Under the pieces are notes generated by a model. The model had not been told where the DNA came from, did not search any database, and saw nothing but the letters and a program-made list of their open reading frames with translations. DNA of 64,000 nucleotides from Escherichia coli (lineage in GTDB: Bacteria; Pseudomonadota; Gammaproteobacteria; Enterobacterales; Enterobacteriaceae), in NCBI RefSeq assembly GCF_030013205.1, contig NZ_CP122648.1. The stretch is one strand, 5' to 3'. A program made the translations under genes and the position numbers. Shown here one piece after another: positions 1 to 60,795 of this stretch; the stretch's first letter is position 1; each line of letters starts with the position of its first letter.

Positions 1-245
1 CACCGCCGGAGCAGTTCCGTGTGCCGATGATGGTCTGGATGTCAGATAAATATCTAGAAAATCCGGCCAATGCGCAGGCATTTGCGCAGCTGAAAAAAGA
101 AGCCGACATGAAAGTGCCACGCCGTCATGTAGAGCTGTACGACACCATCATGGGTTGTCTTGGCTATACTTCACCGGATGGTGGAATTAACGAAAACAAC
201 AACTGGTGCCACATCCCGCAGGCAAGAGAGGCGGCGGCTAACTAA
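1..245 (+). CDS. eptB: 3' end of a phosphoethanolamine transferase (EptB-like), truncated by window edge
   Basis: ORF 21..245 runs to a stop just upstream of proK; identity assigned from position relative to proK/dppA in the E. coli gene order, not from a search. Confidence 0.5.
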
Positions 246-295
246 GAGGCCTGCTGACTTTCTCGCCGATCAAAAGGCATTTTGCTATTAAGGGA

Positions 296-324
296 TTGAC
301 GAGGGCGTATCTGCGCAGTAAGAT
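296..324 (+). promoter_or_regulatory. sigma70 promoter of proK (-35 TTGACG, 17-bp spacer, -10 TAAGAT, GC-rich discriminator)
   Basis: TTGACG at 296-301, TAAGAT at 319-324, then GCGCCCC before the tRNA 5' end at 337. Confidence 0.6.
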
Positions 325-336
325 GCGCCCCGCATT

Positions 337-760
<424 letters not shown>

Positions 761-1348
761 GCACTCATTGTGGGATACAGCGTATCCGTCTTATCCGATC
801 TAAACGGCAACACACCACACATTTCCCTGCCAAATTTGCGCCCCATATCTCACTATCCATTAATGGATTTGTGACAGAAACCATTGTCTTTTTTTATATT
901 TGCTTAAATCTTTTTTTGCGTTACTTATGACTGGCGCTGGCATTTTCCGCTGTGCGTTTTAGCGTTCATGGTATTAATCGCTCAGATATCCACCTTTTCC
1001 TCAGATTTTTTTCACTAAATGCATAAAACTTAATCACCAAATGTTGCTAAATATTAAGCTGATTGTTCTGGTCATGTTGGAGTAGCACAAATTTCTCTGC
1101 TGCAAATAGCGGTTTGAAGTTTTTTTAATCTTTGTTTGTGGATTCTCACCGTTGGTGTAAATCCCGGTTGGCTGTATTGACGTTTTCACATTCTGTTGAC
1201 AGATTGTAGGTCACGAGGGGCATTTTATGGAGGATCCGCACTGTTACACTGATGTTAATTAGTACGGCATCCCCACCTCATAACGTTGACCCGACCGGGC
1301 AAAAAACAAAAAAGGTCAGGCGGCGACAACCCACTGCAAAGGGTTAAA

Positions 1349-1366
1349 ACAACAAACATCACAATT
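1349..1366 (+). promoter_or_regulatory. CA-rich element in the dppA 5' UTR, candidate GcvB sRNA target site
   Basis: AACAACAAACATCACAAT immediately upstream of the GGAG Shine-Dalgarno and the ATG at 1378. Confidence 0.45.
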
Positions 1367-1377
1367 GGAGCAGAATA

Positions 1378-2985
1378 ATGCGTATTTCCTTGAAAAAGTC
1401 AGGGATGCTGAAGCTTGGTCTCAGCCTGGTGGCTATGACCGTCGCAGCAAGTGTTCAGGCTAAAACTCTGGTTTATTGCTCAGAAGGATCTCCGGAAGGG
1501 TTTAACCCGCAGTTGTTTACCTCCGGTACTACCTATGACGCCTCTTCCGTGCCGCTTTATAACCGCCTGGTTGAATTTAAAATCGGCACCACCGAAGTGA
1601 TCCCGGGCCTCGCTGAAAAGTGGGAAGTCAGCGAAGACGGTAAAACCTATACCTTCCATCTGCGTAAAGGTGTGAAGTGGCACGACAATAAAGAATTCAA
1701 ACCGACGCGCGAACTGAACGCCGATGACGTGGTGTTCTCGTTCGATCGTCAGAAAAACGCGCAAAACCCGTACCATAAAGTTTCTGGCGGTAGCTACGAA
1801 TACTTTGAAGGCATGGGCTTGCCGGAGCTGATCAGCGAAGTGAAAAAGGTGGACGACAACACCGTTCAGTTTGTGCTGACTCGACCGGAAGCGCCGTTCC
1901 TCGCTGACCTGGCAATGGACTTCGCCTCTATTCTGTCAAAAGAATATGCTGACGCGATGATGAAAGCCGGTACACCGGAAAAACTGGACCTCAACCCAAT
2001 CGGCACCGGTCCGTTCCAGTTACAGCAGTACCAAAAAGATTCCCGTATCCGCTACAAAGCGTTTGATGGCTACTGGGGCACCAAACCGCAGATCGATACG
2101 CTGGTTTTCTCTATTACCCCTGATGCTTCCGTGCGTTACGCGAAATTGCAGAAGAATGAATGCCAGGTGATGCCGTACCCGAACCCGGCAGATATCGCTC
2201 GCATGAAGCAGGATAAATCCATCAATCTGATGGAAATGCCGGGGCTTAACGTCGGCTATCTTTCATATAACGTGCAGAAAAAACCACTTGATGACGTGAA
2301 AGTTCGCCAGGCTCTGACCTACGCGGTGAACAAAGACGCTATCATCAAAGCGGTTTATCAGGGCGCGGGCGTGGCAGCGAAAAACCTGATCCCGCCAACC
2401 ATGTGGGGCTATAACGACGACGTTCAGGACTACACCTACGATCCCGAAAAAGCGAAAGCCTTGCTGAAAGAAGCGGGCCTGGAAAAAGGCTTCTCCATCG
2501 ACCTGTGGGCAATGCCGGTACAACGTCCGTATAACCCGAATGCTCGACGCATGGCAGAGATGATTCAGGCAGACTGGGCGAAAGTGGGCGTGCAGGCCAA
2601 AATTGTCACCTACGAATGGGGTGAGTATCTCAAGCGTGCGAAAGATGGCGAGCATCAGACGGTAATGATGGGCTGGACTGGCGACAACGGGGATCCGGAT
2701 AACTTCTTCGCCACCCTGTTCAGCTGCGCCGCCTCTGAACAAGGCTCCAACTACTCAAAATGGTGCTACAAACCGTTTGAAGATCTGATTCAACCGGCGC
2801 GTGCTACCGACGACCATAACAAACGCGTTGAACTGTACAAGCAAGCGCAGGTGGTGATGCACGATCAGGCTCCGGCACTGATCATCGCTCACTCCACCGT
2901 GTTTGAACCGGTACGCAAAGAAGTTAAAGGCTATGTGGTTGATCCATTAGGCAAACATCACTTCGAAAACGTCTCTATCGAATAA
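1378..2985 (+). CDS. dppA: dipeptide ABC transporter periplasmic binding protein
   Basis: 535-aa ORF with signal peptide and SBP family-5 features; GGAG SD; followed by dppBCDF. Confidence 0.95.
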   Translation: MRISLKKSGMLKLGLSLVAMTVAASVQAKTLVYCSEGSPEGFNPQLFTSGTTYDASSVPLYNRLVEFKIGTTEVIPGLAEKWEVSEDGKTYTFHLRKGVKWHDNKEFKPTRELNADDVVFSFDRQKNAQNPYHKVSGGSYEYFEGMGLPELISEVKKVDDNTVQFVLTRPEAPFLADLAMDFASILSKEYADAMMKAGTPEKLDLNPIGTGPFQLQQYQKDSRIRYKAFDGYWGTKPQIDTLVFSITPDASVRYAKLQKNECQVMPYPNPADIARMKQDKSINLMEMPGLNVGYLSYNVQKKPLDDVKVRQALTYAVNKDAIIKAVYQGAGVAAKNLIPPTMWGYNDDVQDYTYDPEKAKALLKEAGLEKGFSIDLWAMPVQRPYNPNARRMAEMIQADWAKVGVQAKIVTYEWGEYLKRAKDGEHQTVMMGWTGDNGDPDNFFATLFSCAASEQGSNYSKWCYKPFEDLIQPARATDDHNKRVELYKQAQVVMHDQAPALIIAHSTVFEPVRKEVKGYVVDPLGKHHFENVSIE

Positions 2986-3003
2986 TTAAAAGCCATACCC
3001 GGT

Positions 3004-3029
3004 GGCGCTGCATCTCTGCGTGCAGCGCC
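3004..3029 (+). other. intercistronic stem-loop between dppA and dppB (no U-tract)
   Basis: GGCGCTGCA ... TGCAGCGCC inverted repeat with 8-nt loop. Confidence 0.5.
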
Positions 3030-3135
3030 ATCCGGCAGCAATACTTCATTCCCTGTCCGGCACGGGCGGGAATTGATTTGTGAGCAATACAGACACGCAG
3101 TTCCAGGCTGCGGGTCACTACAGAGAATCCGGGTT

Positions 3136-4155
3136 ATGTTGCAGTTTATTCTCCGACGTTTGGGACTCGTCATCCCCACGTTTATCGGTATTACCCTTCT
3201 CACATTTGCCTTTGTCCACATGATCCCGGGCGATCCGGTGATGATCATGGCGGGCGAACGTGGGATCTCCCCAGAGCGTCACGCGCAGCTGCTGGCTGAA
3301 CTCGGCTTAGATAAACCGATGTGGCAGCAGTATCTCAATTACATTTGGAGCGTAATGCACGGCGATTTAGGCATTTCGATGAAAAGCCGCATCCCGGTTT
3401 GGGAAGAGTTCGTGCCGCGCTTTCAGGCCACGCTGGAGCTTGGTGTCTGCGCGATGATTTTTGCGACTGCGGTCGGTATTCCAGTCGGTGTGCTGGCTGC
3501 GGTTAAACGCGGTTCCATTTTCGATCACACGGCGGTTGGTCTGGCGCTGACCGGCTACTCGATGCCGATCTTCTGGTGGGGCATGATGCTGATCATGCTG
3601 GTTTCGGTGCACTGGAACCTGACGCCCGTCTCCGGTCGCGTGAGCGACATGGTGTTCCTCGATGATTCCAATCCGTTAACCGGTTTTATGCTAATCGACA
3701 CCGCCATCTGGGGTGAAGACGGTAACTTTATCGATGCCGTCGCCCATATGATCCTGCCCGCCATTGTGCTGGGTACTATCCCGCTGGCGGTCATTGTACG
3801 TATGACACGCTCCTCGATGCTGGAAGTGCTGGGTGAAGATTACATCCGCACCGCGCGCGCCAAAGGGTTGGCCCGCATGCGGGTGATTATCGTCCATGCT
3901 CTGCGTAACGCGATGCTGCCGGTAGTGACCGTTATCGGCCTGCAGGTGGGAACATTGCTGGCGGGGGCGATTCTGACCGAAACCATCTTCTCGTGGCCCG
4001 GTCTGGGGCGCTGGTTGATTGACGCACTGCAACGCCGCGACTATCCGGTAGTGCAGGGCGGCGTATTGCTGGTGGCGACGATGATTATCCTCGTCAACTT
4101 GCTGGTCGATCTGCTGTACGGCGTGGTGAACCCGCGTATTCGTCATAAGAAGTAA
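3136..4155 (+). CDS. dppB: dipeptide ABC transporter permease
   Basis: ORF 3073..4155; start taken at the internal ATG giving a 339-aa product beginning MLQFILRRLG. Confidence 0.9.
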   Translation: MLQFILRRLGLVIPTFIGITLLTFAFVHMIPGDPVMIMAGERGISPERHAQLLAELGLDKPMWQQYLNYIWSVMHGDLGISMKSRIPVWEEFVPRFQATLELGVCAMIFATAVGIPVGVLAAVKRGSIFDHTAVGLALTGYSMPIFWWGMMLIMLVSVHWNLTPVSGRVSDMVFLDDSNPLTGFMLIDTAIWGEDGNFIDAVAHMILPAIVLGTIPLAVIVRMTRSSMLEVLGEDYIRTARAKGLARMRVIIVHALRNAMLPVVTVIGLQVGTLLAGAILTETIFSWPGLGRWLIDALQRRDYPVVQGGVLLVATMIILVNLLVDLLYGVVNPRIRHKK

Positions 4156-4164
4156 GGGGACATC

Positions 4165-5067
4165 ATGTCACAGGTTACTGAAAATAAAGTGATTAGCGCA
4201 CCGGTGCCGATGACCCCGTTACAGGAGTTCTGGCACTATTTTAAACGCAACAAAGGCGCGGTCGTCGGGCTGGTTTACGTCGTCATCGTGCTGTTTATCG
4301 CGATCTTTGCCAACTGGATTGCACCCTATAACCCGGCGGAACAGTTCCGCGATGCACTGCTCGCCCCGCCAGCCTGGCAGGAAGGCGGCAGCATGGCGCA
4401 CTTGCTGGGCACCGATGACGTAGGCCGTGATGTGCTGTCGCGTCTGATGTACGGTGCGCGATTGTCACTGCTGGTTGGCTGTCTGGTAGTTGTGTTATCG
4501 CTGATTATGGGCGTTATTCTCGGCCTGATCGCCGGTTACTTCGGCGGCCTGGTCGATAACATCATCATGCGCGTGGTCGATATCATGCTGGCGCTACCAA
4601 GTCTGCTGTTGGCACTGGTGCTGGTGGCGATTTTCGGCCCGTCGATTGGTAACGCCGCGCTGGCGCTGACCTTCGTTGCCTTGCCGCACTATGTGCGCTT
4701 AACACGCGCCGCCGTGCTGGTGGAGGTGAATCGCGATTACGTTACCGCGTCTCGCGTGGCAGGTGCCGGGGCGATGCGTCAGATGTTTATTAACATCTTC
4801 CCGAACTGCCTTGCGCCTCTGATTGTTCAGGCGTCGCTCGGTTTCTCTAACGCCATTCTCGATATGGCTGCTCTTGGTTTCCTCGGCATGGGGGCGCAGC
4901 CGCCAACGCCGGAGTGGGGCACCATGCTCTCCGACGTGTTGCAGTTCGCGCAAAGCGCCTGGTGGGTCGTGACCTTCCCGGGTCTGGCGATCCTGCTGAC
5001 GGTGCTGGCATTTAACCTGATGGGTGACGGTCTGCGTGACGCGCTCGATCCCAAACTGAAGCAGTAA
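4165..5067 (+). CDS. dppC: dipeptide ABC transporter permease
   Basis: 300-aa polytopic membrane ORF in operon position. Confidence 0.92.
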
Positions 5068-5077
5068 GAGGTTCGAG

Positions 5078-6057
<980 letters not shown>

Positions 6058-6061
<4 letters not shown>

Positions 6062-7062
6062 GTACGCATGAGGCCACCTCGCAACAACCGCTGTTGCAGG
6101 CTATCGACCTGAAAAAACATTATCCGGTGAAGAAAGGTATGTTCGCTCCGGAACGTCTGGTGAAGGCGCTGGATGGCGTTTCGTTTAACCTTGAACGTGG
6201 CAAAACGCTGGCGGTAGTAGGTGAATCCGGCTGCGGTAAATCTACCCTCGGTCGGTTGCTTACGATGATCGAAACGCCCACCGGCGGTGAGCTGTATTAC
6301 CAGGGGCAGGATCTGCTCAAGCACGATCCGCAGGCGCAGAAGCTGCGTCGGCAGAAAATCCAGATCGTCTTCCAGAATCCCTATGGTTCGCTAAATCCGC
6401 GTAAAAAAGTTGGGCAAATTCTTGAAGAGCCGCTGCTTATTAATACCAGCTTAAGCAAAGAACAGCGTCGGGAAAAAGCCCTGTCGATGATGGCGAAAGT
6501 CGGCCTGAAAACCGAGCATTACGACCGCTATCCGCATATGTTCTCCGGCGGTCAGCGTCAGCGTATCGCCATTGCCCGTGGTCTGATGCTCGACCCGGAT
6601 GTGGTGATTGCCGATGAACCGGTTTCCGCGCTGGACGTTTCAGTGCGTGCGCAGGTGCTGAATCTGATGATGGATTTGCAGCAGGAGTTGGGGCTGTCTT
6701 ATGTCTTTATCTCGCACGACCTGTCAGTGGTTGAGCACATTGCCGATGAAGTGATGGTGATGTACCTGGGCCGCTGCGTGGAGAAGGGAACGAAGGACCA
6801 AATCTTCAATAACCCGCGTCATCCGTACACTCAGGCGCTACTCTCCGCGACGCCGCGCCTGAACCCGGACGATCGCCGCGAGCGCATCAAGCTCACCGGT
6901 GAACTGCCAAGCCCGCTCAATCCACCGCCGGGCTGCGCGTTTAACGCCCGCTGTCGTCGGCGCTTCGGCCCCTGCACCCAGTTGCAGCCGCAGCTAAAAG
7001 ACTACGGCGGTCAACTGGTAGCTTGTTTTGCTGTTGATCAGGATGAAAATCCGCAGCGTTAA
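6058..7062 (+). CDS. dppF: dipeptide ABC transporter ATP-binding protein
   Basis: 334 aa; Walker [10 protein letters not shown]; 4-nt overlap with dppD. Confidence 0.93.
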
Positions 7063-7068
7063 CTCACA

Positions 7069-7093
7069 AAACCGGGGCCGTGCGCTCCGGTTT
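7069..7093. terminator. putative bidirectional stem-loop between convergent dppF and yhjV
   Basis: AAACCGG ... CCGGTTT inverted repeat. Confidence 0.4.
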
Positions 7094-8363
7094 ACTCAAT
7101 CAGCTTCAACAGTGGCGACAAGCATAGCAAAATGCCGTAAAGCAGAATCAGCCAGGCTTTAAATCCGCGAAGTTTTTCCAGTTGTGCGACTTTATAGATC
7201 AGGAAAAACGGAATGAGGCACGACACAATGCCATATAACGGGCTTCCCAACTGAAAGAACACCAGCACCGATACACGAAACGAAACCCAAATCGTCAACG
7301 TAATGACGATAAAAGCGCAGATCGCCAGAGTCAGCACGCGTGAATTAATTTTCTTGGTATCAATAATTCGGCTTAACAGATTGAGAATAATGCCTTTAAT
7401 GGCCTCGTGGAAACCGAGATAAATGCCAAAGAATGCGGTCAGTACGGCAAAGATATTCAGCACCGTAGAGGTGATATGAATGATATGCCCAGGGATCACC
7501 TGCGCGGCCAGTGCCAGTGCCGAGATATTTTGTTCAAAGGCAGAAACGGCTTCTTCGTGGCTAATTGAGAAGGTAAACGAAAAGGCAAAAAACAGGATCA
7601 CCGCAATGAGCGTGATATAACTAATTCGGTGGGTACGCAGCGCGAGCCGGGTTGCCAGTACTTTATCTGCTTCCCGTTTACGATAGGCAATATTCATTGG
7701 GTTAAGTACCTGAATAAATACTGCAGAAAAGAAGCAAAATGGAATGGTAAGCAGGACATCGCGGAAAAAGACGGAGGCTTGCGGGAAGGCGGTTATATTG
7801 GCGAAATTCCAGTGCGGGATCATCGCAAAACCGAACACGACAATAATCCCTACTTTGACCACCACCATTGGCCCGGAAATCTTAAACAGTAATCGTTCAC
7901 CACCAGACGCAATTGCCACCAGTACGGCGAAAATGGCGACTTTATAAAGTAGAGATTGTGAAAGATCGGCATCGGTTAAACCGAAGGTTTTCAGGTACGA
8001 GGCGCTGTCGAAAACCACGGAGAGAGAGTAGATAAAAATCCCGTGGATAATCATCAAAAAGTAGATAACCCCGAGGAAAATTCCCCAGTTCTTCCCCAGG
8101 TAATGACTGATAATATCGGTGTAGTCATTACAGGAATCGCTTTCAGAAAGGGTTTTTAAATAAATGTCCTGCACTACCCAGGTGGCAGGATAAGCAATGA
8201 TCGCTGCGGTAATAAATACCCAAATTCCCTTCAAGCCAATTTGTACTGGCATCAGCACGGTTCCGGCACCAATCGCCATGCCTATGCATAATAAAACCCA
8301 GCCGAAGTCGTAGCGTGTAAACGGCAATTTCTGATTGTGTTTCGGTAGTGTGTTGTGCTGCAT
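7092..8363 (-). CDS. yhjV: amino acid permease family inner-membrane transporter
   Basis: ORF 7092..8426; start taken at the internal ATG (8363) giving 423 aa beginning [10 protein letters not shown]; multi-TM. Confidence 0.85.
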
Positions 8364-8721
8364 AAAGTCCTGTCCAGAAAGAAGTCGGCCTCGCAAAAAT
8401 GAATAAACCCAGTTTCTCTTGCGCAACAGGTGGAGAAGTCGAATACGCAGTATGTAAAAAATGAGGCAACAGATTCACTGGGGAGGTCGCGAGGAGGCGC
8501 AATTCTACAAAATTGCGCATTTCACTACCAGTCTGGAGTCAGCTCGGATATGAACTGCAACTATTGCAAATAAAGAAATTAAGCTGGAAGGCATCGCGCA
8601 ATGAGGAAGATTGCCGGGTGCTGACGGTAAAAAGCAATCGTAAAATCAGCGGCAAGCCGGAAAGGTTCCGGTGAGGCGCAATGTTGCGGGGGCTTAATCC
8701 CTGGTGGCATTGGTTGCTGGA

Positions 8722-8790
8722 GAGAGAAAACCCCCGCACGTTGCAGGTATGCACCTGACAACATCACGGGGGCTAATCTTGAACCTAGAC
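8722..8790 (-). ncRNA. rdl: Rdl-type antisense sRNA (antitoxin of ldr), copy 1, approximate ends
   Basis: Antisense of the ldr leader; sequence GTCTAGGTTCAAGATTAGCCCCCG...GCGGGGGTTTTCTC recalled as Rdl-like. Confidence 0.4.
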
Positions 8791-8838
8791 CACTCAAGAA
8801 TAGCCGCGAAACGTTGTCATTACAACACAGGCGGCTAT

Positions 8839-8946
8839 ATGACGCTCGCAGAACTGGGCATGGCCTTCTGGCATGATTTAGCGGCTCCGGTCATTGCTGG
8901 CATTCTTGCCAGCATGATCGTGAACTGGCTGAATAAGCGGAAGTAA
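8839..8946 (+). CDS. ldrD: Ldr family type I toxin, 35 aa (MTLAELGMAFWHDLAAPVIAGILASMIVNWLNKRK)
   Basis: Sits at the 3' end of ORF 8704..8946; product matches the 35-aa Ldr peptide family. Confidence 0.8.
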   Translation: MTLAELGMAFWHDLAAPVIAGILASMIVNWLNKRK

Positions 8947-9205
8947 CGTGTCAGACGGGCGTCAGGCTGCCGTAATGGCAAGTTGCGTCCGGATCAGGCC
9001 GCAGGGATAAAACTCTGCGGCCTTTTTCGTAAGAAAAATGCAACGGTTGCAAGCGGATAATATTCTGCGGAATGCGCAGCACAGAGTGAAGACGTGACGG
9101 ATTCCGGAACAGAAAAACAGTCGTAGAATCAGCGGCAAGCCGGAAAGGTTCCGGTGAGGCGCAATGTTGCGGGGGCTTTATCCCTGGTGGCATTGGTTGC
9201 TGGAG

Positions 9206-9273
9206 AGAGAAAACCCCCGCACGTTGCAGGTATGCACCTGACAACACCACGGGGGCCATTCTTGCATCCAAAC
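9206..9273 (-). ncRNA. rdl: Rdl-type antisense sRNA, copy 2, approximate ends
   Basis: Paralogous position in repeat unit 2; the 5' portion diverges from copy 1. Confidence 0.35.
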
Positions 9274-9321
9274 AATACAAGAATAGCCGCGAAACGTTGT
9301 CATTACAACAGAGGCGGCTAT

Positions 9322-9429
9322 ATGACGCTCGCAGAGCTGGGCATGGCCTTCTGGCATGATTTAGCGGCTCCGGTCATTGCTGGCATTCTTGCCAGCATGA
9401 TCGTGAACTGGCTGAATAAGCGGAAGTAA
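9322..9429 (+). CDS. Ldr family type I toxin, 35 aa, copy 2
   Basis: Same peptide as copy 1, in the second repeat unit. Confidence 0.8.
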   Translation: MTLAELGMAFWHDLAAPVIAGILASMIVNWLNKRK

Positions 9430-9687
9430 CGTGTCAGACGGGCGTCAGGCTGCCGTAATGGCAATTTGCGCCCGGACCAGGCCGCAGGGATAAAACTCTG
9501 CGGCCTTTTTCGTAAGAAAAATGCAACGGTTGCAAGCGGATAATATTCTGCGGAATGCGCAGCACAGAGTGAAGAAGTGATGGATTCCGGAACAGAAAAA
9601 CAGTCGTAGAATCAGCGGCAAGCCGGAAAGGTTCCGGTGAGGCGCAATGTTGCGGGGGCTTAATCCCTGGTGGCATTGGTTGCTGGA

Positions 9688-9756
9688 GAGAGAAAACCCC
9701 CGCACGTTGCAGGTATGCACCTGACAACACCACGGGGGCCATTCTTGCATCTAGAC
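9688..9756 (-). ncRNA. rdl: Rdl-type antisense sRNA, copy 3, approximate ends
   Basis: Paralogous position in repeat unit 3. Confidence 0.35.
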
Positions 9757-9804
9757 CATTCAAGAATAGCCGCGAAATGTTGTCATTACAACACAGGCGG
9801 CTAT

Positions 9805-9912
9805 ATGACGCTCGCAGAACTGGGCATGGCCTTCTGGCATGATTTAGCGGCTCCGGTCATTGCTGGCATTCTTGCCAGTATGATCATGAACTGGCTGAAC
9901 AAGCGGAAGTAA
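9805..9912 (+). CDS. Ldr family type I toxin, 35 aa, copy 3 (variant ...ASMIMNWLNKRK)
   Basis: Third repeat unit; one substitution (I to M) relative to copies 1 and 2. Confidence 0.8.
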   Translation: MTLAELGMAFWHDLAAPVIAGILASMIMNWLNKRK

Positions 9913-9998
9913 CGTGTCATGCGGGCGTCAGGCTGCCGTAATGGCAATTTGCGCCCGGACCAGGCCGCAGGGGTGAAACTCTGCGGCCTTTTTCGTTC

Positions 9999-10907
9999 TT
10001 ATTGCGGGTAAGGCACCCAGTCGCCGCCGTTCAGGCGAACGTACGGTTTATCCTGGTATTGAATAACTACTGCATTTGAGTTCTCGGAGACCGGTGCTGT
10101 TTGTGGTAACCCACTGGTGAGTTTTTTCCAGTCAACATTGTCTTCGGAGAAAATCTTGCCATCAAGAACGCGAACCACCAGATCGGAGATAGCCAGGAAG
10201 CTGCTCGGTTGGTCGATGACAATCGGTGCCCCCTGATGTGGTGCCTTCATGCCGAAGAATTTCACCCCAACGGGGACGTCTGTGATAGACGGGCTAGGGA
10301 TATCACGTAGGCCAGATACCTGCATTCTGTCGCCCTTCAGCGCGCCACCGTGTTCCGGCACCACTACCACCATCACTTTACGACCCGACTTCTCCAGTTC
10401 AGTAAAGAAGGCGTCCAGCTCATCAAAGAATTTCTGTGCTCGCGCTTTGTAATCCGCTGTTTTGCTGACGCCCGGATAATGGTTGCCGTCATGCAGTGGA
10501 AGCGTGTTGTAGAACGTGGCACTACGGCTGTTTTTATCTTTTTCGGTAACGTCCAGCCAGCGGTTAAGCACGGCGGTATCGTCATAAACCGGCGAACCAT
10601 CAAAGCCCAGCAAAATAACCGGCAGATTTGTTTGATCCATCAATTCGGTCTGCATGCCGCCATTTTCGCGAACTTCTTTCAAAAAACCGCCGAACTGGCC
10701 GTTATGTCCCATCATCAGGTGCTGGGTAAAGCCCAGTTTCGACAGGTTATCAAACAGATAGCAGTCATTATTTGCCGGTTGATACAGATTAGTATGCGAA
10801 GTCTGCCCGCAGCTGGCGCGCAGTAAACGGATCGCCGCCGGAAGGTGACATTGCCGTCGAGTACTGGAGTACGGTGGCGAAAATTCCGGCTCGCCGTGGC
10901 GAAGCGA
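9999..10907 (-). pseudogene. bcsG: 5'-truncated remnant of cellulose phosphoethanolamine transferase gene (C-terminal about 240-300 codons only)
   Basis: Minus-strand frame is open from 10907 to the stop at 9999 and encodes ...YLFDNLSKLGFTQHLMMGHNGQFGG...NGGDWVPYPQ; no N-terminal TM region, promoter or RBS; abuts a bcsC fragment on the opposite strand. Confidence 0.7.
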
Positions 10908-34567: not shown

Positions 34568-34583
34568 AGTTTTACTCTGACAT

Positions 34584-34689
34584 AAAAAAAACCCGGCATA
34601 GGGGACCGGGAAGAGGATAGTCTGCCGTCTCCAGACTAATAAACCGTTATAACACTCCCTGTTGGCACGGGAAACTTTGTGCTCTCAGT
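34584..34689 (-). ncRNA. gadY: GadY small RNA, antisense to the gadX 3' end
   Basis: Minus-strand sequence ACTGAGAGCACAAAGTTTCCCGTGCCAACAGGGAG...CCCGGTCCCCTATGCCGGGTTTTTTTT matches my recollection of GadY and ends in a hairpin plus U-run. Confidence 0.75.
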
Positions 34690-34935
34690 AAGTTAAATAT
34701 AACTTTTACTGGAAATAAGATCAGCCATTTTTTTATAAACATAAGCTATACGCTGTGCGAAAATATATTCGTGTTGCATTTACTTATTATCAATTAACTG
34801 TTATGCAAAACTACTTTGTGGATAAATTTTGGTCCTACCAAATCTGGCAGTTTTTGCGCTAAGAAACAGTCTGGCATCATTTCATTAGTATACTGAAATT
34901 GAAATAATCGCAGTAATGAAATATAAGGGATAGTC

Positions 34936-49954: not shown

Positions 49955-50244
49955 CACGTTTGCGCTTAACAAAACACGACCATATGGATAACAAAACCAT
50001 AGCATTTGCAAGGGATAACGCACAGCGCTCTTCACTCCTGATGGGGCATATCGTTTTGCCTGACAAAGAGGGCGTGCTTTTGCGTATTTGCCGAGATACC
50101 AGGCAATTTCATGGGATATAAACGCCTGTAAACTCACCCGGCGAATATTATCGCTCTGAATTTTAAATAAATTTATTTTTCGCCAGCCACCCCGGTATTA
50201 ACCCAGGCAGCCAGCATTTTTTATTTTCCTCATGGAGAATCGCT

Positions 50245-52227
50245 ATGTCACGTCCGCAATTTACCTCGTTGCGTTTGAGTTTGTTGGCTTTGGCTGTTTC
50301 TGCCACCTTGCCAACGTTTGCTTTTGCTACTGAAACCATGACCGTTACGGCAACGGGGAATGCCCGTAGTTCCTTCGAAGCGCCTATGATGGTCAGCGTC
50401 ATCGACACTTCCGCTCCTGAAAATCAAACGGCTACTTCAGCCACCGATCTGCTGCGTCATGTTCCTGGAATTACTCTTGATGGTACCGGACGAACCAACG
50501 GTCAGGATGTAAATATGCGTGGCTATGATCATCGCGGCGTGCTGGTTCTTGTCGATGGTGTTCGCCAGGGAACGGATACCGGACACCTGAATGGTACTTT
50601 TCTTGATCCGGCGCTGATCAAGCGTGTTGAGATTGTTCGCGGACCTTCAGCATTACTGTATGGCAGTGGCGCGCTGGGTGGAGTGATCTCCTACGATACG
50701 GTCGATGCAAAAGATTTATTGCAGGAAGGACAAAGTAGTGGTTTTCGTGTCTTTGGTACTGGCGGCACGGGGGACCATAGCCTGGGATTAGGCGCGAGCG
50801 CGTTTGGGCGAACTGAAAATCTGGATGGTATTGTGGCCTGGTCCAGTCGCGATCGGGGTGATTTACGCCAGAGCAATGGTGAAACCGCGCCGAATGACGA
50901 GTCCATTAATAACATGCTGGCGAAAGGGACCTGGCAAATTGATTCAGCCCAGTCTCTGAGCGGTTTAGTGCGTTACTACAACAACGACGCGCGTGAACCA
51001 AAAAATCCGCAGACCGTTGAAGCTTCTGATAGCAGCAACCCGATGGTTGATCGTTCTACAATTCAACGCGATGCGCAGCTTTCTTATAAACTCGCCCCGC
51101 AGGGCAACGACTGGTTAAATGCAGATGCAAAAATTTACTGGTCGGAAGTCCGTATTAATGCGCAAAACACGGGGAGTTCCGGCGAGTATCGTGAACAGAT
51201 AACAAAAGGAGCAAGGCTGGAGAACCGTTCCACTCTATTTGCCGACAGTTTCGCTTCTCACTTACTGACATATGGCGGTGAGTATTATCGTCAGGAACAA
51301 CATCCGGGCGGCGCGACGACGGGCTTCCCGCAAGCAAAAATCGATTTTAGCTCTGGCTGGCTACAGGATGAGATCACCTTACGCGATCTGCCGATTACCC
51401 TGCTTGGCGGAACCCGCTATGACAGTTATCGCGGTAGCAGCGACGGCTACAAAGATGTTGATGCTGACAAATGGTCATCTCGTGCGGGGATGACTATCAA
51501 CCCGACCAACTGGCTGATGTTATTTGGCTCATATGCCCAGGCATTCCGCGCCCCGACGATGGGCGAAATGTATAACGATTCTAAGCACTTCTCGATTGGT
51601 CGCTTCTATACCAACTATTGGGTGCCAAACCCGAACTTACGTCCGGAAACTAACGAAACTCAGGAGTACGGTTTTGGGCTGCGTTTTGATGACCTGATGT
51701 TGTCCAATGATGCCCTGGAATTTAAAGCCAGCTACTTTGATACCAAAGCGAAGGATTACATCTCCACGACCGTCGATTTCGCGGCGGCGACGACTATGTC
51801 GTATAACGTCCCGAACGCCAAAATCTGGGGCTGGGATGTGATGACGAAATATACCACTGATCTGTTTAGCCTTGATGTGGCCTATAACCGAACCCGCGGC
51901 AAAGACACCGATACCGGCGAATATATCTCCAGTATTAACCCGGATACCGTTACCAGTACCCTGAATATTCCGATCGCTCATAGTGGCTTCTCTGTTGGTT
52001 GGGTCGGTACGTTTGCCGATCGCTCAACACATATCAGCAGCAGCTACAGCAAACAACCTGGCTATGGCGTGAATGATTTCTACGTCAGTTATCAAGGACA
52101 ACAGGCGCTCAAAGGCATGACCACTACTTTGGTGTTGGGTAACGCTTTCGACAAAGAGTACTGGTCGCCACAAGGCATCCCACAGGATGGTCGTAATGGA
52201 AAAATTTTCGTGAGTTATCAATGGTAA
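50245..52227 (+). CDS. chuA: TonB-dependent outer-membrane haem/haemoglobin receptor
   Basis: 660 aa; signal peptide; TonB-dependent receptor architecture; C-terminal aromatic residue (...SYQW). Confidence 0.9.
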   Translation: MSRPQFTSLRLSLLALAVSATLPTFAFATETMTVTATGNARSSFEAPMMVSVIDTSAPENQTATSATDLLRHVPGITLDGTGRTNGQDVNMRGYDHRGVLVLVDGVRQGTDTGHLNGTFLDPALIKRVEIVRGPSALLYGSGALGGVISYDTVDAKDLLQEGQSSGFRVFGTGGTGDHSLGLGASAFGRTENLDGIVAWSSRDRGDLRQSNGETAPNDESINNMLAKGTWQIDSAQSLSGLVRYYNNDAREPKNPQTVEASDSSNPMVDRSTIQRDAQLSYKLAPQGNDWLNADAKIYWSEVRINAQNTGSSGEYREQITKGARLENRSTLFADSFASHLLTYGGEYYRQEQHPGGATTGFPQAKIDFSSGWLQDEITLRDLPITLLGGTRYDSYRGSSDGYKDVDADKWSSRAGMTINPTNWLMLFGSYAQAFRAPTMGEMYNDSKHFSIGRFYTNYWVPNPNLRPETNETQEYGFGLRFDDLMLSNDALEFKASYFDTKAKDYISTTVDFAAATTMSYNVPNAKIWGWDVMTKYTTDLFSLDVAYNRTRGKDTDTGEYISSINPDTVTSTLNIPIAHSGFSVGWVGTFADRSTHISSSYSKQPGYGVNDFYVSYQGQQALKGMTTTLVLGNAFDKEYWSPQGIPQDGRNGKIFVSYQW

Positions 52228-60326: not shown

Positions 60327-60478
60327 ATTGCGCTCCTGATTGTTGCAGGTAGTGTCTCTCTTCGAAGCGGATAAGTCAAAAACATATATGGTTTAACGAA
60401 TGTGTATGTGCAGAGGAAGGTAATAGGTGTGAATTTTGAGTTGGCTATTTATTTGAAAGGAGGTCTGAATCAGGACGT

Positions 60479-60562
60479 AAAAAAACCGACTTTGCGTCGG
60501 TTTTTTACTTTCCAGCCCTGAGTTGGTGGCTCTGGCCGGAGTGAGAATGCCCACATCTAACG
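60479..60562 (-). ncRNA. agrB: AgrB-like antisense sRNA (approximate ends)
   Basis: Minus-strand unit ending in hairpin CCGAC...GTCGG plus U-run (plus-strand 60479-60506); complementary to the dinQ leader repeat at about 60940-61000. Confidence 0.45.
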
Positions 60563-60710: not shown

Positions 60711-60795
60711 GTAAAAAAACCGACTTCGCGTCGGTTTTTTACTTTGCAGCCCAGAGTTGGTGGCTCTGGCTGGAGTGAGAATGCCATCATCTAAC
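60711..60795 (-). ncRNA. agrA: AgrA-like antisense sRNA (approximate ends)
   Basis: Second copy of the same repeat/terminator unit (hairpin at 60718-60738). Confidence 0.45.

Follow-up and report, generated by a model that had tools for sequence, protein, structure and literature searches.

Escherichia coli K-12 carries a single ldrD/rdlD type I toxin–antitoxin module (LDR-D; b4453/b4454) between yhjV and bcsG, and its tandem ldrABC triplet is located between kdsA and chaA. The locus described here raises the question of why an E. coli genome displays three such units where K-12 has one, and whether this arrangement is out of the ordinary. It belongs to a 64,000-nucleotide stretch of DNA (contig NZ_CP122648.1, referred to as the window), for which an initial annotation had proposed three tandem ldr/rdl units at a site holding one unit in K-12 and had placed the K-12 tandem triplet elsewhere. 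Comparison with the K-12 annotation identified the locus as yhjV–bcsG and confirmed both placements. The region is very probably the common three-unit LDR-D locus, in which yhjV and bcsG flank three presumably autonomous modules of the ldrD/rdlD type arranged head to tail.

Tandem Repeats Finder reported a single array at 8630–9996 (period 483, 2.8 copies, 95% matches, no indels, score 2531), and a repeat search retrieved in-register copies beginning at 8630, 9113, and 9596, in agreement with the three direct repeats of about 483 bp described initially. Units 2 (9031–9513, plus strand) and 3 (9514–9996, plus strand) each consist of an 82-bp spacer (9031–9112 and 9514–9595) followed by a core (9113–9513 and 9596–9996), with the two inter-unit spacers agreeing at 80 of 82 positions. 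The 82 bp to the left of copy 1 (8548–8629) are only about 50% identical to the spacer and represent a strongly diverged homologue, as global alignment yielded a score of 3 compared with −17.2 ± 4.6 for shuffled sequences (P = 0.0002). Because of this homology, the array is delimited as three full, head-to-tail units of 483 bp each, spanning 8548–9996, with unit 1 occupying 8548–9030 on the plus strand (conserved core 8630–9030; 97% identity to the K-12 yhjV–bcsG intergenic region). Unit 3 directly adjoins the stop codon of a bcsG remnant (9999). Every unit possesses its own ldr ORF, an antisense Rdl RNA, and terminators for both.

The ATGs at 8839, 9322, and 9805 each start a 35-codon ORF. 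Copies 1 (8839–8946, including the stop codon; plus strand) and 2 (9322–9429, plus strand) encode the identical peptide MTLAELGMAFWHDLAAPVIAGILASMIVNWLNKRK, an LdrD-type toxin with the L3 allele (WP_001295224.1, from the RefSeq annotation of identical sequence). Copy 3 (9805–9912, plus strand; WP_001521561.1) differs by Val28Met, a GTG-to-ATG change at 9886–9888 that falls within the transmembrane helix. A substitution in this copy had been noted before as Ile to Met; the substitution stands, while the residue is Val28, and Ile27 is intact. The exact V28M peptide occurs on at least 1000 contigs. Pfam PF13940 (Ldr_toxin) matches the peptide over residues 1–35 of 35 (E = 1e-26), and LdrD (PDB 5LBJ) is identical to the window toxins at 33–34 of 35 residues (33/35 for copy 3, E = 9e-19); an NCBIfam scan of the three Ldr peptides matched no family. 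Relative to K-12 LdrD, which contains Phe3, the window toxins contain Leu3, and among the sampled D-type units Phe3 was found in K-12 only. RefSeq annotates three "Ldr family" CDS in genomes that are 100% identical to the window. Two 109-aa minus-strand ORFs (8951–9280 and 9434–9763) were rejected as genes, as a Pfam search with a cutoff as loose as E ≤ 10 matched neither and RefSeq does not annotate them.

The Rfam model rdlD (RF01813) retrieved one full-length minus-strand match per unit at 82–90 bits versus a gathering score of 50, corroborating the upstream antisense Rdl-like regions of the initial annotation and, together with PF13940 and 5LBJ, its assignment of 35-aa Ldr toxins and type I toxin–antitoxin units. 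The rdl of copy 1 (8725–8790; 90.4 bits) comprises 66 nt, of which the 5′-terminal 11 remain free, and includes a terminator stem-loop (fold of −31.7 kcal/mol, z = −4.9); copies 2 (9208–9273; 81.7 bits) and 3 (9691–9756; 81.8 bits) fold with z = −3.2 and z = −3.9, respectively. All three sites are antisense to the ldr 5′ UTR, upstream of the ORF, and end 49 nt before each ATG. Their fold, a stable stem-loop with a U-tail, is identical in the three copies, and a second terminator on the minus strand closes each Rdl. On the plus strand, the GC-hairpin/U-tract terminators reported for each unit were recovered as intrinsic terminators of the ldr mRNA at 8996–9028 in unit 1 (hairpin 8996–9023; 11-bp stem with 8 GC pairs, then TTTTT) and at 9479–9511 and 9962–9994 in units 2 and 3 (hairpins 9479–9506 and 9962–9989).

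From sequence motifs we infer the ldr and rdl promoters and the mRNA ends. A sigma-70 consensus scan of 8364–10000 returned 0 promoter-like sites; by eye, a putative ldr −10 box is discernible on the plus strand (TAAAAT at 8641–8646; TAGAAT at 9124–9129 and 9607–9612), a motif conserved in D and ABC units. The corresponding −35 region would fall in the diverged flank or spacer and would differ between copy 1 and copies 2 and 3. On the minus strand, a putative rdl promoter (8797–8825; equivalents at 9280–9308 and 9763–9791), likewise assigned by eye, combines a −35 TTGTAA, a 17-nt spacer, and a −10 TATTCT located 6 nt ahead of the Rdl 5′ end, agreeing with the consensus at 8 of 12 positions, under the scan threshold.

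The ldr 5′ UTR also contains a candidate leader ORF of 25 codons (8681–8758, 9164–9241, and 9647–9724, plus strand) that ends inside the Rdl target; among 41 units of the D and ABC types, 37 keep it intact and 4 have it broken. In 30 of 35 D units, but in no ABC unit, an in-frame ATG (8749 in unit 1) precedes the ldr start by 90 nt. A leader-ORF hypothesis (ldrX) and a hok-like model have been put forward (PMC4147584). RNAalifold analysis of 12 D and ABC mRNAs predicted, in all of them, pairing of the SD/ATG region with the 3′ UTR and of a 5′ GGCGCA with a 3′ UGCGCC, suggesting that the start region would be sequestered by the 3′ UTR. Since nearly all predicted pairs are invariant, with compensatory change in 2 of 103, this fold rests on conservation rather than covariation. 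The resemblance of ldr/rdl to hok/sok (plasmid R1 and chromosomal hok) has been stated in reviews (PMC4147584, PMC8594479); shared features are an antisense RNA that targets the 5′ UTR ahead of the toxin RBS, a long structured toxin mRNA with predicted 5′–3′ pairing and predicted occlusion of the start region, and a proposed leader ORF. The toxins, however, are unrelated, with Ldr belonging with Fst and not with Hok. Rfam "sok" matches on the ldr 5′ UTRs (26–30 bits, far below the gathering score of 59) were discarded as evidence of homology.

How common is such an array? The inter-unit spacer was found in 3304 of 5426 complete E. coli genomes at 6980 places (median 2, maximum 4 per genome), a census built on megablast matches to the 82-nt spacer and samples of 59 and 40 rows and not on a full per-genome count; loci with four copies were checked directly. 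In an evenly spaced sample, 1, 2, 3, and ≥4 copies were present in 23, 5, 21, and 10 genomes. By these estimates, about 61% of complete genomes contain at least two units at yhjV–bcsG and about 35% exactly three, with the number per site ranging from 1 to 5 in steps of exactly 483 bp. The copy-number plasticity suggested at the outset is thus borne out, and the unusualness that had been implied for the triplet is not: the three-copy ldrD/rdlD array is a common, already annotated, ordinary variant. The single ldrD of K-12 is not the species norm, as roughly six in ten complete genomes hold 2–5 units, and type I toxin counts based on K-12, or an "ldrD" deletion in a wild strain, consequently underestimate the toxin load. 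The region carries little weight as a discovery, considering that the literature already covers the module, its tandem occurrence, and its duplication and loss in individual lineages and that RefSeq annotates the three toxins; a literature search for ldrE, ldrF, and rdlE returned unrelated acronyms only.

Several other origins of the triplet were weighed. Short-read assembly can wrongly expand or collapse a tandem 483-bp repeat, but the identical 3.4-kb stretch recurs in 10 or more genomes that were closed independently, the substitutions that tell the units apart keep a stable order, and arrays of 1–5 units with the exact 483-bp step recur across the 5426 closed genomes, rendering an assembly artefact the least probable of these accounts, with a negligible chance of being correct. 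Creation of the triplet by gene conversion or transfer from ldrABC is highly improbable as well. K-12 ldrABC/rdlABC is also a tandem triplet with the same internal layout and nearly identical 5′-UTR core and 3′-UTR elements, so that either locus can hold three tandem units of the same architecture; nevertheless, all three units of the window are of the LDR-D type, sharing 95–97% nucleotide identity with K-12 LDR-D and 79–82% with LDR-A/B/C, the toxins are LdrD-type throughout (the other locus encodes LdrA/B/C-type peptides), the period is 483 rather than 535 bp, and the spacers of the two loci are unrelated. Comparison with the K-12 LDR units revealed no ABC-like tract in the three window units, and gene conversion between LDR loci, which the initial annotation had entertained, is therefore unsupported. 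A recent, lineage-specific amplification of a K-12-like single ldrD to three copies in the pig-ETEC lineage is only slightly less improbable. It would fit the single unit seen at this site in K-12, O157:H7, and ST1193, and the confinement of the exact array (≥99% identity) to 26 records. Against it, the same three-unit architecture (96–99% identical, in register) is present in many unrelated strains, two divergent non-coli Escherichia lineages possess homologous two-unit arrays at this site, likewise repeating every 483 bp and joined by a homologous spacer, and the units differ from one another by 4–5%. Furthermore, the 82-bp spacer is not found at the K-12 D locus and so was not generated from the single-copy locus. 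The pairwise alignments advised initially, of the units with each other and with K-12 ldrA–D, thus yielded D-type units 4–5% apart, and their allele blocks are shared with other phylogroups and with Escherichia other than E. coli; both observations uphold the earlier reading of paralogue drift without a very recent duplication.

A different concern is whether all three modules are active or whether only some are, with the rest persisting in the repeat as silent or decaying relics. The sequence upstream of the −10 box is only ~50% identical between copy 1 and copies 2 and 3, copy 3 carries its substitution inside the transmembrane helix, and some units in other strains contain a frameshifted leader ORF or a toxin without the conserved Trp. 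In the window, however, no unit has lost its 35-codon ORF, its SD region, or the motifs of the rdl promoter; the ldr and rdl terminators, the Rdl stem-loop, and the 3′-UTR elements predicted to pair with the start region are likewise kept in all three, and the V28M allele is widespread, which argues against a recent defect; we thus regard relic modules as unlikely, though less so than the alternative origins above.

Under the preferred reading of three autonomous modules, each unit would produce a ~375-nt mRNA with a long structured 5′ UTR, the ORF of a 35-aa membrane toxin, and a strong intrinsic terminator. Judging from the literature, Rdl would pair with the ldr 5′ UTR, RNase III would cut the duplex, and toxin translation would be blocked, possibly indirectly through the leader ORF or through mRNA refolding as in hok/sok. 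LdrD, if made, would be expected from the K-12 literature to insert into the inner membrane and to cause growth arrest and nucleoid condensation. Toxicity of LdrD and its repression by RdlD are documented for K-12 (PMC4147584, PMC8309996). An RNase III-dependent dsRNA of ~21 nt in the rdlD/ldrD overlap (PMC7373196) and the phenotypes and structure of LdrD (PMC8309996) have also been described. For the copies in the window, toxicity, Rdl repression, and RNase III cleavage are probable by analogy with K-12 ldrD/rdlD, which occupies the same site and shares with them the Rdl stem-loop, terminators, and 3′ UTR. Besides Leu3 in place of Phe3, the differences are the number of units (one versus three), the 82-bp spacer, the V28M allele of copy 3, and the Rdl 5′ tails, which are unlike that of K-12 RdlD.

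The array is old and polymorphic, with the single copy of K-12 at one end of the range. Three non-coli Escherichia genomes were recovered and contain 1 to 2 copies, with E. whittamii displaying a single unit; the underlying scan, an exact 20-mer from the conserved UTR run against one-genome-per-species contigs, gave 5 Escherichia loci plus 4 chance matches in unrelated phyla and missed divergent homologues such as that of Salmonella. Strains with identical BcsG proteins have 3, 2, and 1 units, respectively. In O111:H8, a run of 13 informative sites in copy 2 agrees with copy 2 of a relative that has three copies, after which the last 3 sites agree with copy 3, and private differences are absent; the single unit of ST1193 shows one switch between the two EcN units. 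These junctions indicate that copy number changes by unequal crossover, i.e., homologous recombination between ~95%-identical units, and make the locus a clean natural example of this process. The K-12 unit is consistent with a copy-1/copy-3 chimera of the window array, a signal that turns noisy when further strains enter the comparison. Published work distinguishes LdrD and LdrB groups, with duplications and losses particular to individual lineages (PMC2887945). Small toxin/antisense modules are likewise duplicated within one intergenic region in ibs/sib and zor/orz, which differ in copy number from one E. coli strain to another (PMC2887945, PMC11264685) and whose toxin families and antisense geometry differ from those of ldr/rdl.

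The one mildly new point concerns the Rdl RNAs, whose single-stranded 5′ tail is a hot-spot of diversity. Compared with copy 1, the Rdl of copy 2 differs at 7 of 66 positions and that of copy 3 at 5 of 66, as anticipated by the initial annotation, which had described the Rdl regions of copies 2 and 3 as diverged from copy 1; all inter-copy differences except one lie within the first 17 nt. A 16-nt segment corresponding to the Rdl 5′ tail (8775–8790; equivalents at 9258–9273 and 9741–9756) displays a π of 0.21 versus 0.03–0.06 elsewhere in the unit (P = 0.002), making it ~5-fold more diverse than any other part, next to an almost invariant stem-loop. The segment also coincides with the loop region of an ldr 5′-UTR hairpin whose stem is invariant and whose loop is variable, and it is found as discrete multi-site alleles shuffled across copies and strains.

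On the ldr mRNA, the complement of the Rdl 5′ tail occupies the loop region of a conserved 5′-UTR hairpin. It is conceivable, if doubtful, that the tail sets which ldr mRNA is recognized first and that its diversity keeps tandem modules partly orthogonal. The variable target-recognition domains of Sib RNAs, which lie in the most variable segments of these RNAs (PMC2943612), are an analogue of the role proposed for the tail; discrimination between cognate and non-cognate partners has been shown for Sib/Ibs and is a proposal only for Rdl/ldr. The hot-spot offers a cheap, testable question on cross-talk between tandem type I modules. Only 2 nt separate the Rdl tails of copies 2 and 3, and if tail specificity holds, the array would comprise two recognition classes (copy 1, and copies 2 and 3) rather than three redundant copies.

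Tandem Repeats Finder reported a single array at 8630-9996 (period 483, 2.8 copies, 95% matches, no indels), and a repeat search placed three in-register copies at 8630, 9113 and 9596, every one enclosing a 35-codon ORF (ATGs at 8839, 9322 and 9805). Because the 82 bp immediately preceding copy 1 (8548-8629) are a strongly diverged homologue of both 82-bp inter-unit spacers (P = 0.0002 versus shuffles), the array comprises three full 483-bp units spanning 8548-9996. Each unit has a full-length minus-strand match to the Rfam rdlD family (RF01813, gathering score 50), lying 49 nt upstream of the ldr ATG, at 8725-8790 (90.4 bits), 9208-9273 (81.7 bits) and 9691-9756 (81.8 bits). A GC-rich hairpin with a T-run lies 3′ of each ldr ORF, a second terminator lies at each Rdl 3′ end, and all three Rdl RNAs share one stem-loop fold with a free 11-nt 5′ tail (z-scores −3.2 to −4.9). 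The toxin peptide matches Pfam Ldr_toxin (E = 1e-26), with 33-34 of 35 residues identical to K-12 LdrD (structure PDB 5LBJ). The three ldr/rdl units proposed in the initial annotation are therefore borne out by repeats, ORFs, RF01813, terminators and Pfam alike, while the Ile-to-Met change it assigned to copy 3 is in fact Val28 to Met (GTG to ATG, 9886-9888), in a peptide common enough to occur in at least 1000 contigs. Minus-strand 109-codon TTG-start ORFs recur at 8951-9280 and 9434-9763, covering the spacer and rdl region; with no Pfam match and no RefSeq annotation, they are most likely by-products of the repeat.

The array is flanked by two minus-strand genes, yhjV (7092-8363) and bcsG (from 9999); dppF is located further upstream. 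The corresponding K-12 intergenic region is 669 bp long and holds a single ldrD/rdlD; that of the window measures 1635 bp, or 669 + 2×483. As previously surmised, the K-12 tandem triplet ldrABC/rdlABC lies elsewhere, between kdsA and chaA, and differs in having a period of 535 bp and an unrelated spacer. All three window units are 95-97% identical to K-12 LDR-D versus 79-82% to LDR-A/B/C, and an ABC-like tract is absent from each, which gives no support to the suggested gene conversion between LDR loci. One LDR-ABC-type unit was encountered in p23AR0151A (195 kb, labelled a plasmid), where positions 1-8364 carry the chromosomal segment ychO-ychN-chaCBA-ldr-kdsA-sirB-prmC-prfA, reflecting either F-prime-like capture of chromosomal DNA or replicon mis-assignment.

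The window array is a real but ordinary feature: a known locus, LDR-D, represented by its common three-unit allele. It is also already known, as public genomes carry its annotation: in a pig ETEC genome 100% identical to the window over 3.4 kb, RefSeq lists three CDS at the array position as "type I toxin-antitoxin system toxin Ldr family protein". Of 5426 complete E. coli genomes, 3304 contain the 82-bp spacer, which occurs only at the junction of two D-type units; its occurrences total 6980 (median 2 per genome, maximum 4). When the whole locus was used as a query against 59 evenly spaced chromosomes, 23 had one unit, five had two, 21 had three and 10 had at least four; two loci of the last class were inspected and showed four annotated Ldr genes each from yhjV to bcsG. 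Both counts agree on about 39% of genomes with one unit and about 35% with three, the remainder having two, four or five. In one four-unit array (MMC-J-0091, 5226-5333), the fourth Ldr ends in ...IVNSLNKRK; the replaced Trp has been described as a signature of the Fst/Ldr superfamily, and this copy may be an inactivated toxin.

The copy-number plasticity put forward initially is upheld by this range of one to at least four units and by recombinant units. Across 15 genomes, the units consist of discrete allele blocks shuffled across positions and strains. O111:H8 strain 7-54 11A (1076-1753 of its locus) has two units. At all 26 informative sites its copy 1 agrees with copy 1 of a related array of three units; its copy 2 follows copy 2 of that array over 13 informative sites in a row and copy 3 over the final three, and has no private differences. 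A single unequal crossover in the 3′ UTR would be expected to give this product. Strain EcN has two units; the lone unit of ST1193 (1076-1270 of its locus) follows one of them as far as a point near the rdl promoter and the other beyond it. Each is a clean recombinant, formed by one crossover between neighbouring units of a related array, and as such provides direct evidence of array shrinkage by unequal homologous recombination. NU14, EcN and ST1193 encode identical BcsG proteins and have three, two and one unit, respectively. In a noisy comparison, the 5′ end of the K-12 unit resembles window copy 1 and the 3′ end resembles copy 3, which is only consistent with a longer array having collapsed.

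In a search covering one genome per species, the locus turned up in three divergent Escherichia genomes, with bcsG about 88% identical to that of K-12. Two have two units (intergenic 1152 = 669 + 483 bp) and a spacer 91-98% identical to that of the window; E. whittamii has one unit and 669 bp. The two-unit arrays imply that the array form is older than E. coli and that the genus is polymorphic for unit number. This pattern agrees with a published study in which an ancient divergence of LdrD and LdrB groups was inferred, with later duplications and losses in individual lineages and 2 to 10 Ldr genes counted per genome (PMC2887945). K-12 LdrD differs from the other sampled D-type units, non-coli Escherichia included, in carrying Phe3 where 34/34 have Leu3, so the reference peptide and structure 5LBJ represent an atypical allele.

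Among 35 D-type units from 15 genomes, variation is concentrated in the 16 nt encoding the Rdl 5′ tail (8775-8790, 9258-9273 and 9741-9756), where nucleotide diversity reaches 0.21 versus 0.03-0.06 in all other unit parts (P = 0.002); the Rdl stem-loop is nearly invariant. Within the window, Rdl of copy 1 has 7 differences from that of copy 2 and 5 from that of copy 3, nearly all in the tail; the Rdl sequences of copies 2 and 3 are distinguished by two. Relaxed constraint is the simpler explanation of this diversity. The tail variants are discrete alleles shuffled among copies and strains, and the hot-spot matches the loop region of a predicted ldr-UTR hairpin with an invariant stem. Sib RNAs carry their target-recognition domains in variable regions (PMC2943612), and by analogy the Rdl tail could set cognate specificity.

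Every window unit has the full set of K-12 ldrD/rdlD parts and, by analogy, would act as that pair does, with a toxic LdrD and a counteracting Rdl. LdrD overproduction causes growth arrest and nucleoid condensation, which RdlD counteracts; RdlD overlaps the 5′ UTR rather than the ribosome-binding site, and hok/sok-like control via a leader ORF (ldrX) has been proposed but is unproven (PMC4147584, PMC8309996). The rdlD/ldrD overlap yields an RNase III-dependent dsRNA of about 21 nt (PMC7373196). A 25-codon upstream ORF ending within the Rdl target is intact in 37/41 units, and an ATG in frame with ldr, 90 nt 5′ of its start codon, is confined to D-type units. In the consensus fold of twelve D- and ABC-type mRNAs, the SD/start region pairs with a 3′-UTR segment and the 5′ end with the 3′ end; the paired segments show higher conservation from D to ABC than the coding region does, and nearly all predicted pairs are invariant, so support from covariation is minimal (2 of 103 pairs). 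A putative ldr −10 box (TAAAAT or TAGAAT) and rdl promoter (TTGTAA, 17 nt, TATTCT) were read by eye, and a consensus promoter scan detected neither. Upstream of the ldr −10 box, copy 1 does not share the sequence of copies 2/3, so the three units may be unequally expressed. Sub-threshold Rfam "sok" matches (RF01794, 26-30 bits versus a gathering score of 59) on the toxin strand of the ldr 5′ UTRs (8688-8841, 9171-9324 and 9654-9807) are probably not meaningful; they echo a remark in the T1TAdb paper, where an Ldr locus was classed as Hok/Sok by RNA features.

Beside the array, a deletion of about 10.3 kb (K-12 3,688,757-3,699,050) has removed the 5′ part of bcsG, then bcsF, bcsE, bcsR, bcsQ, bcsA, bcsB and bcsZ, and the first ~417 nt of bcsC. 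The remnants of bcsG (9999-10841, minus strand) and bcsC (10826-13882, plus strand), both partial in RefSeq, meet in a 16-bp overlap common to both sides (10826-10841, AACGGATCGCCGCCGG). Cellulose synthesis should be lost in this strain. An identical junction occurs in 11 pig-associated strains that match the window full length, most of them named ETEC. Elsewhere, the window carries tRNA-Pro(CGG) followed by two RtT-like elements (337-413 and 448-749, plus strand), GadY (34579-34692, minus strand) and two AgrB antisense RNAs of the dinQ/agrAB type I locus (60477-60560 and 60711-60794, minus strand). A chuA/shuA 5′-UTR thermoregulator (50216-50247, plus strand) implies that the chu haem-uptake cluster, which K-12 lacks, is present.
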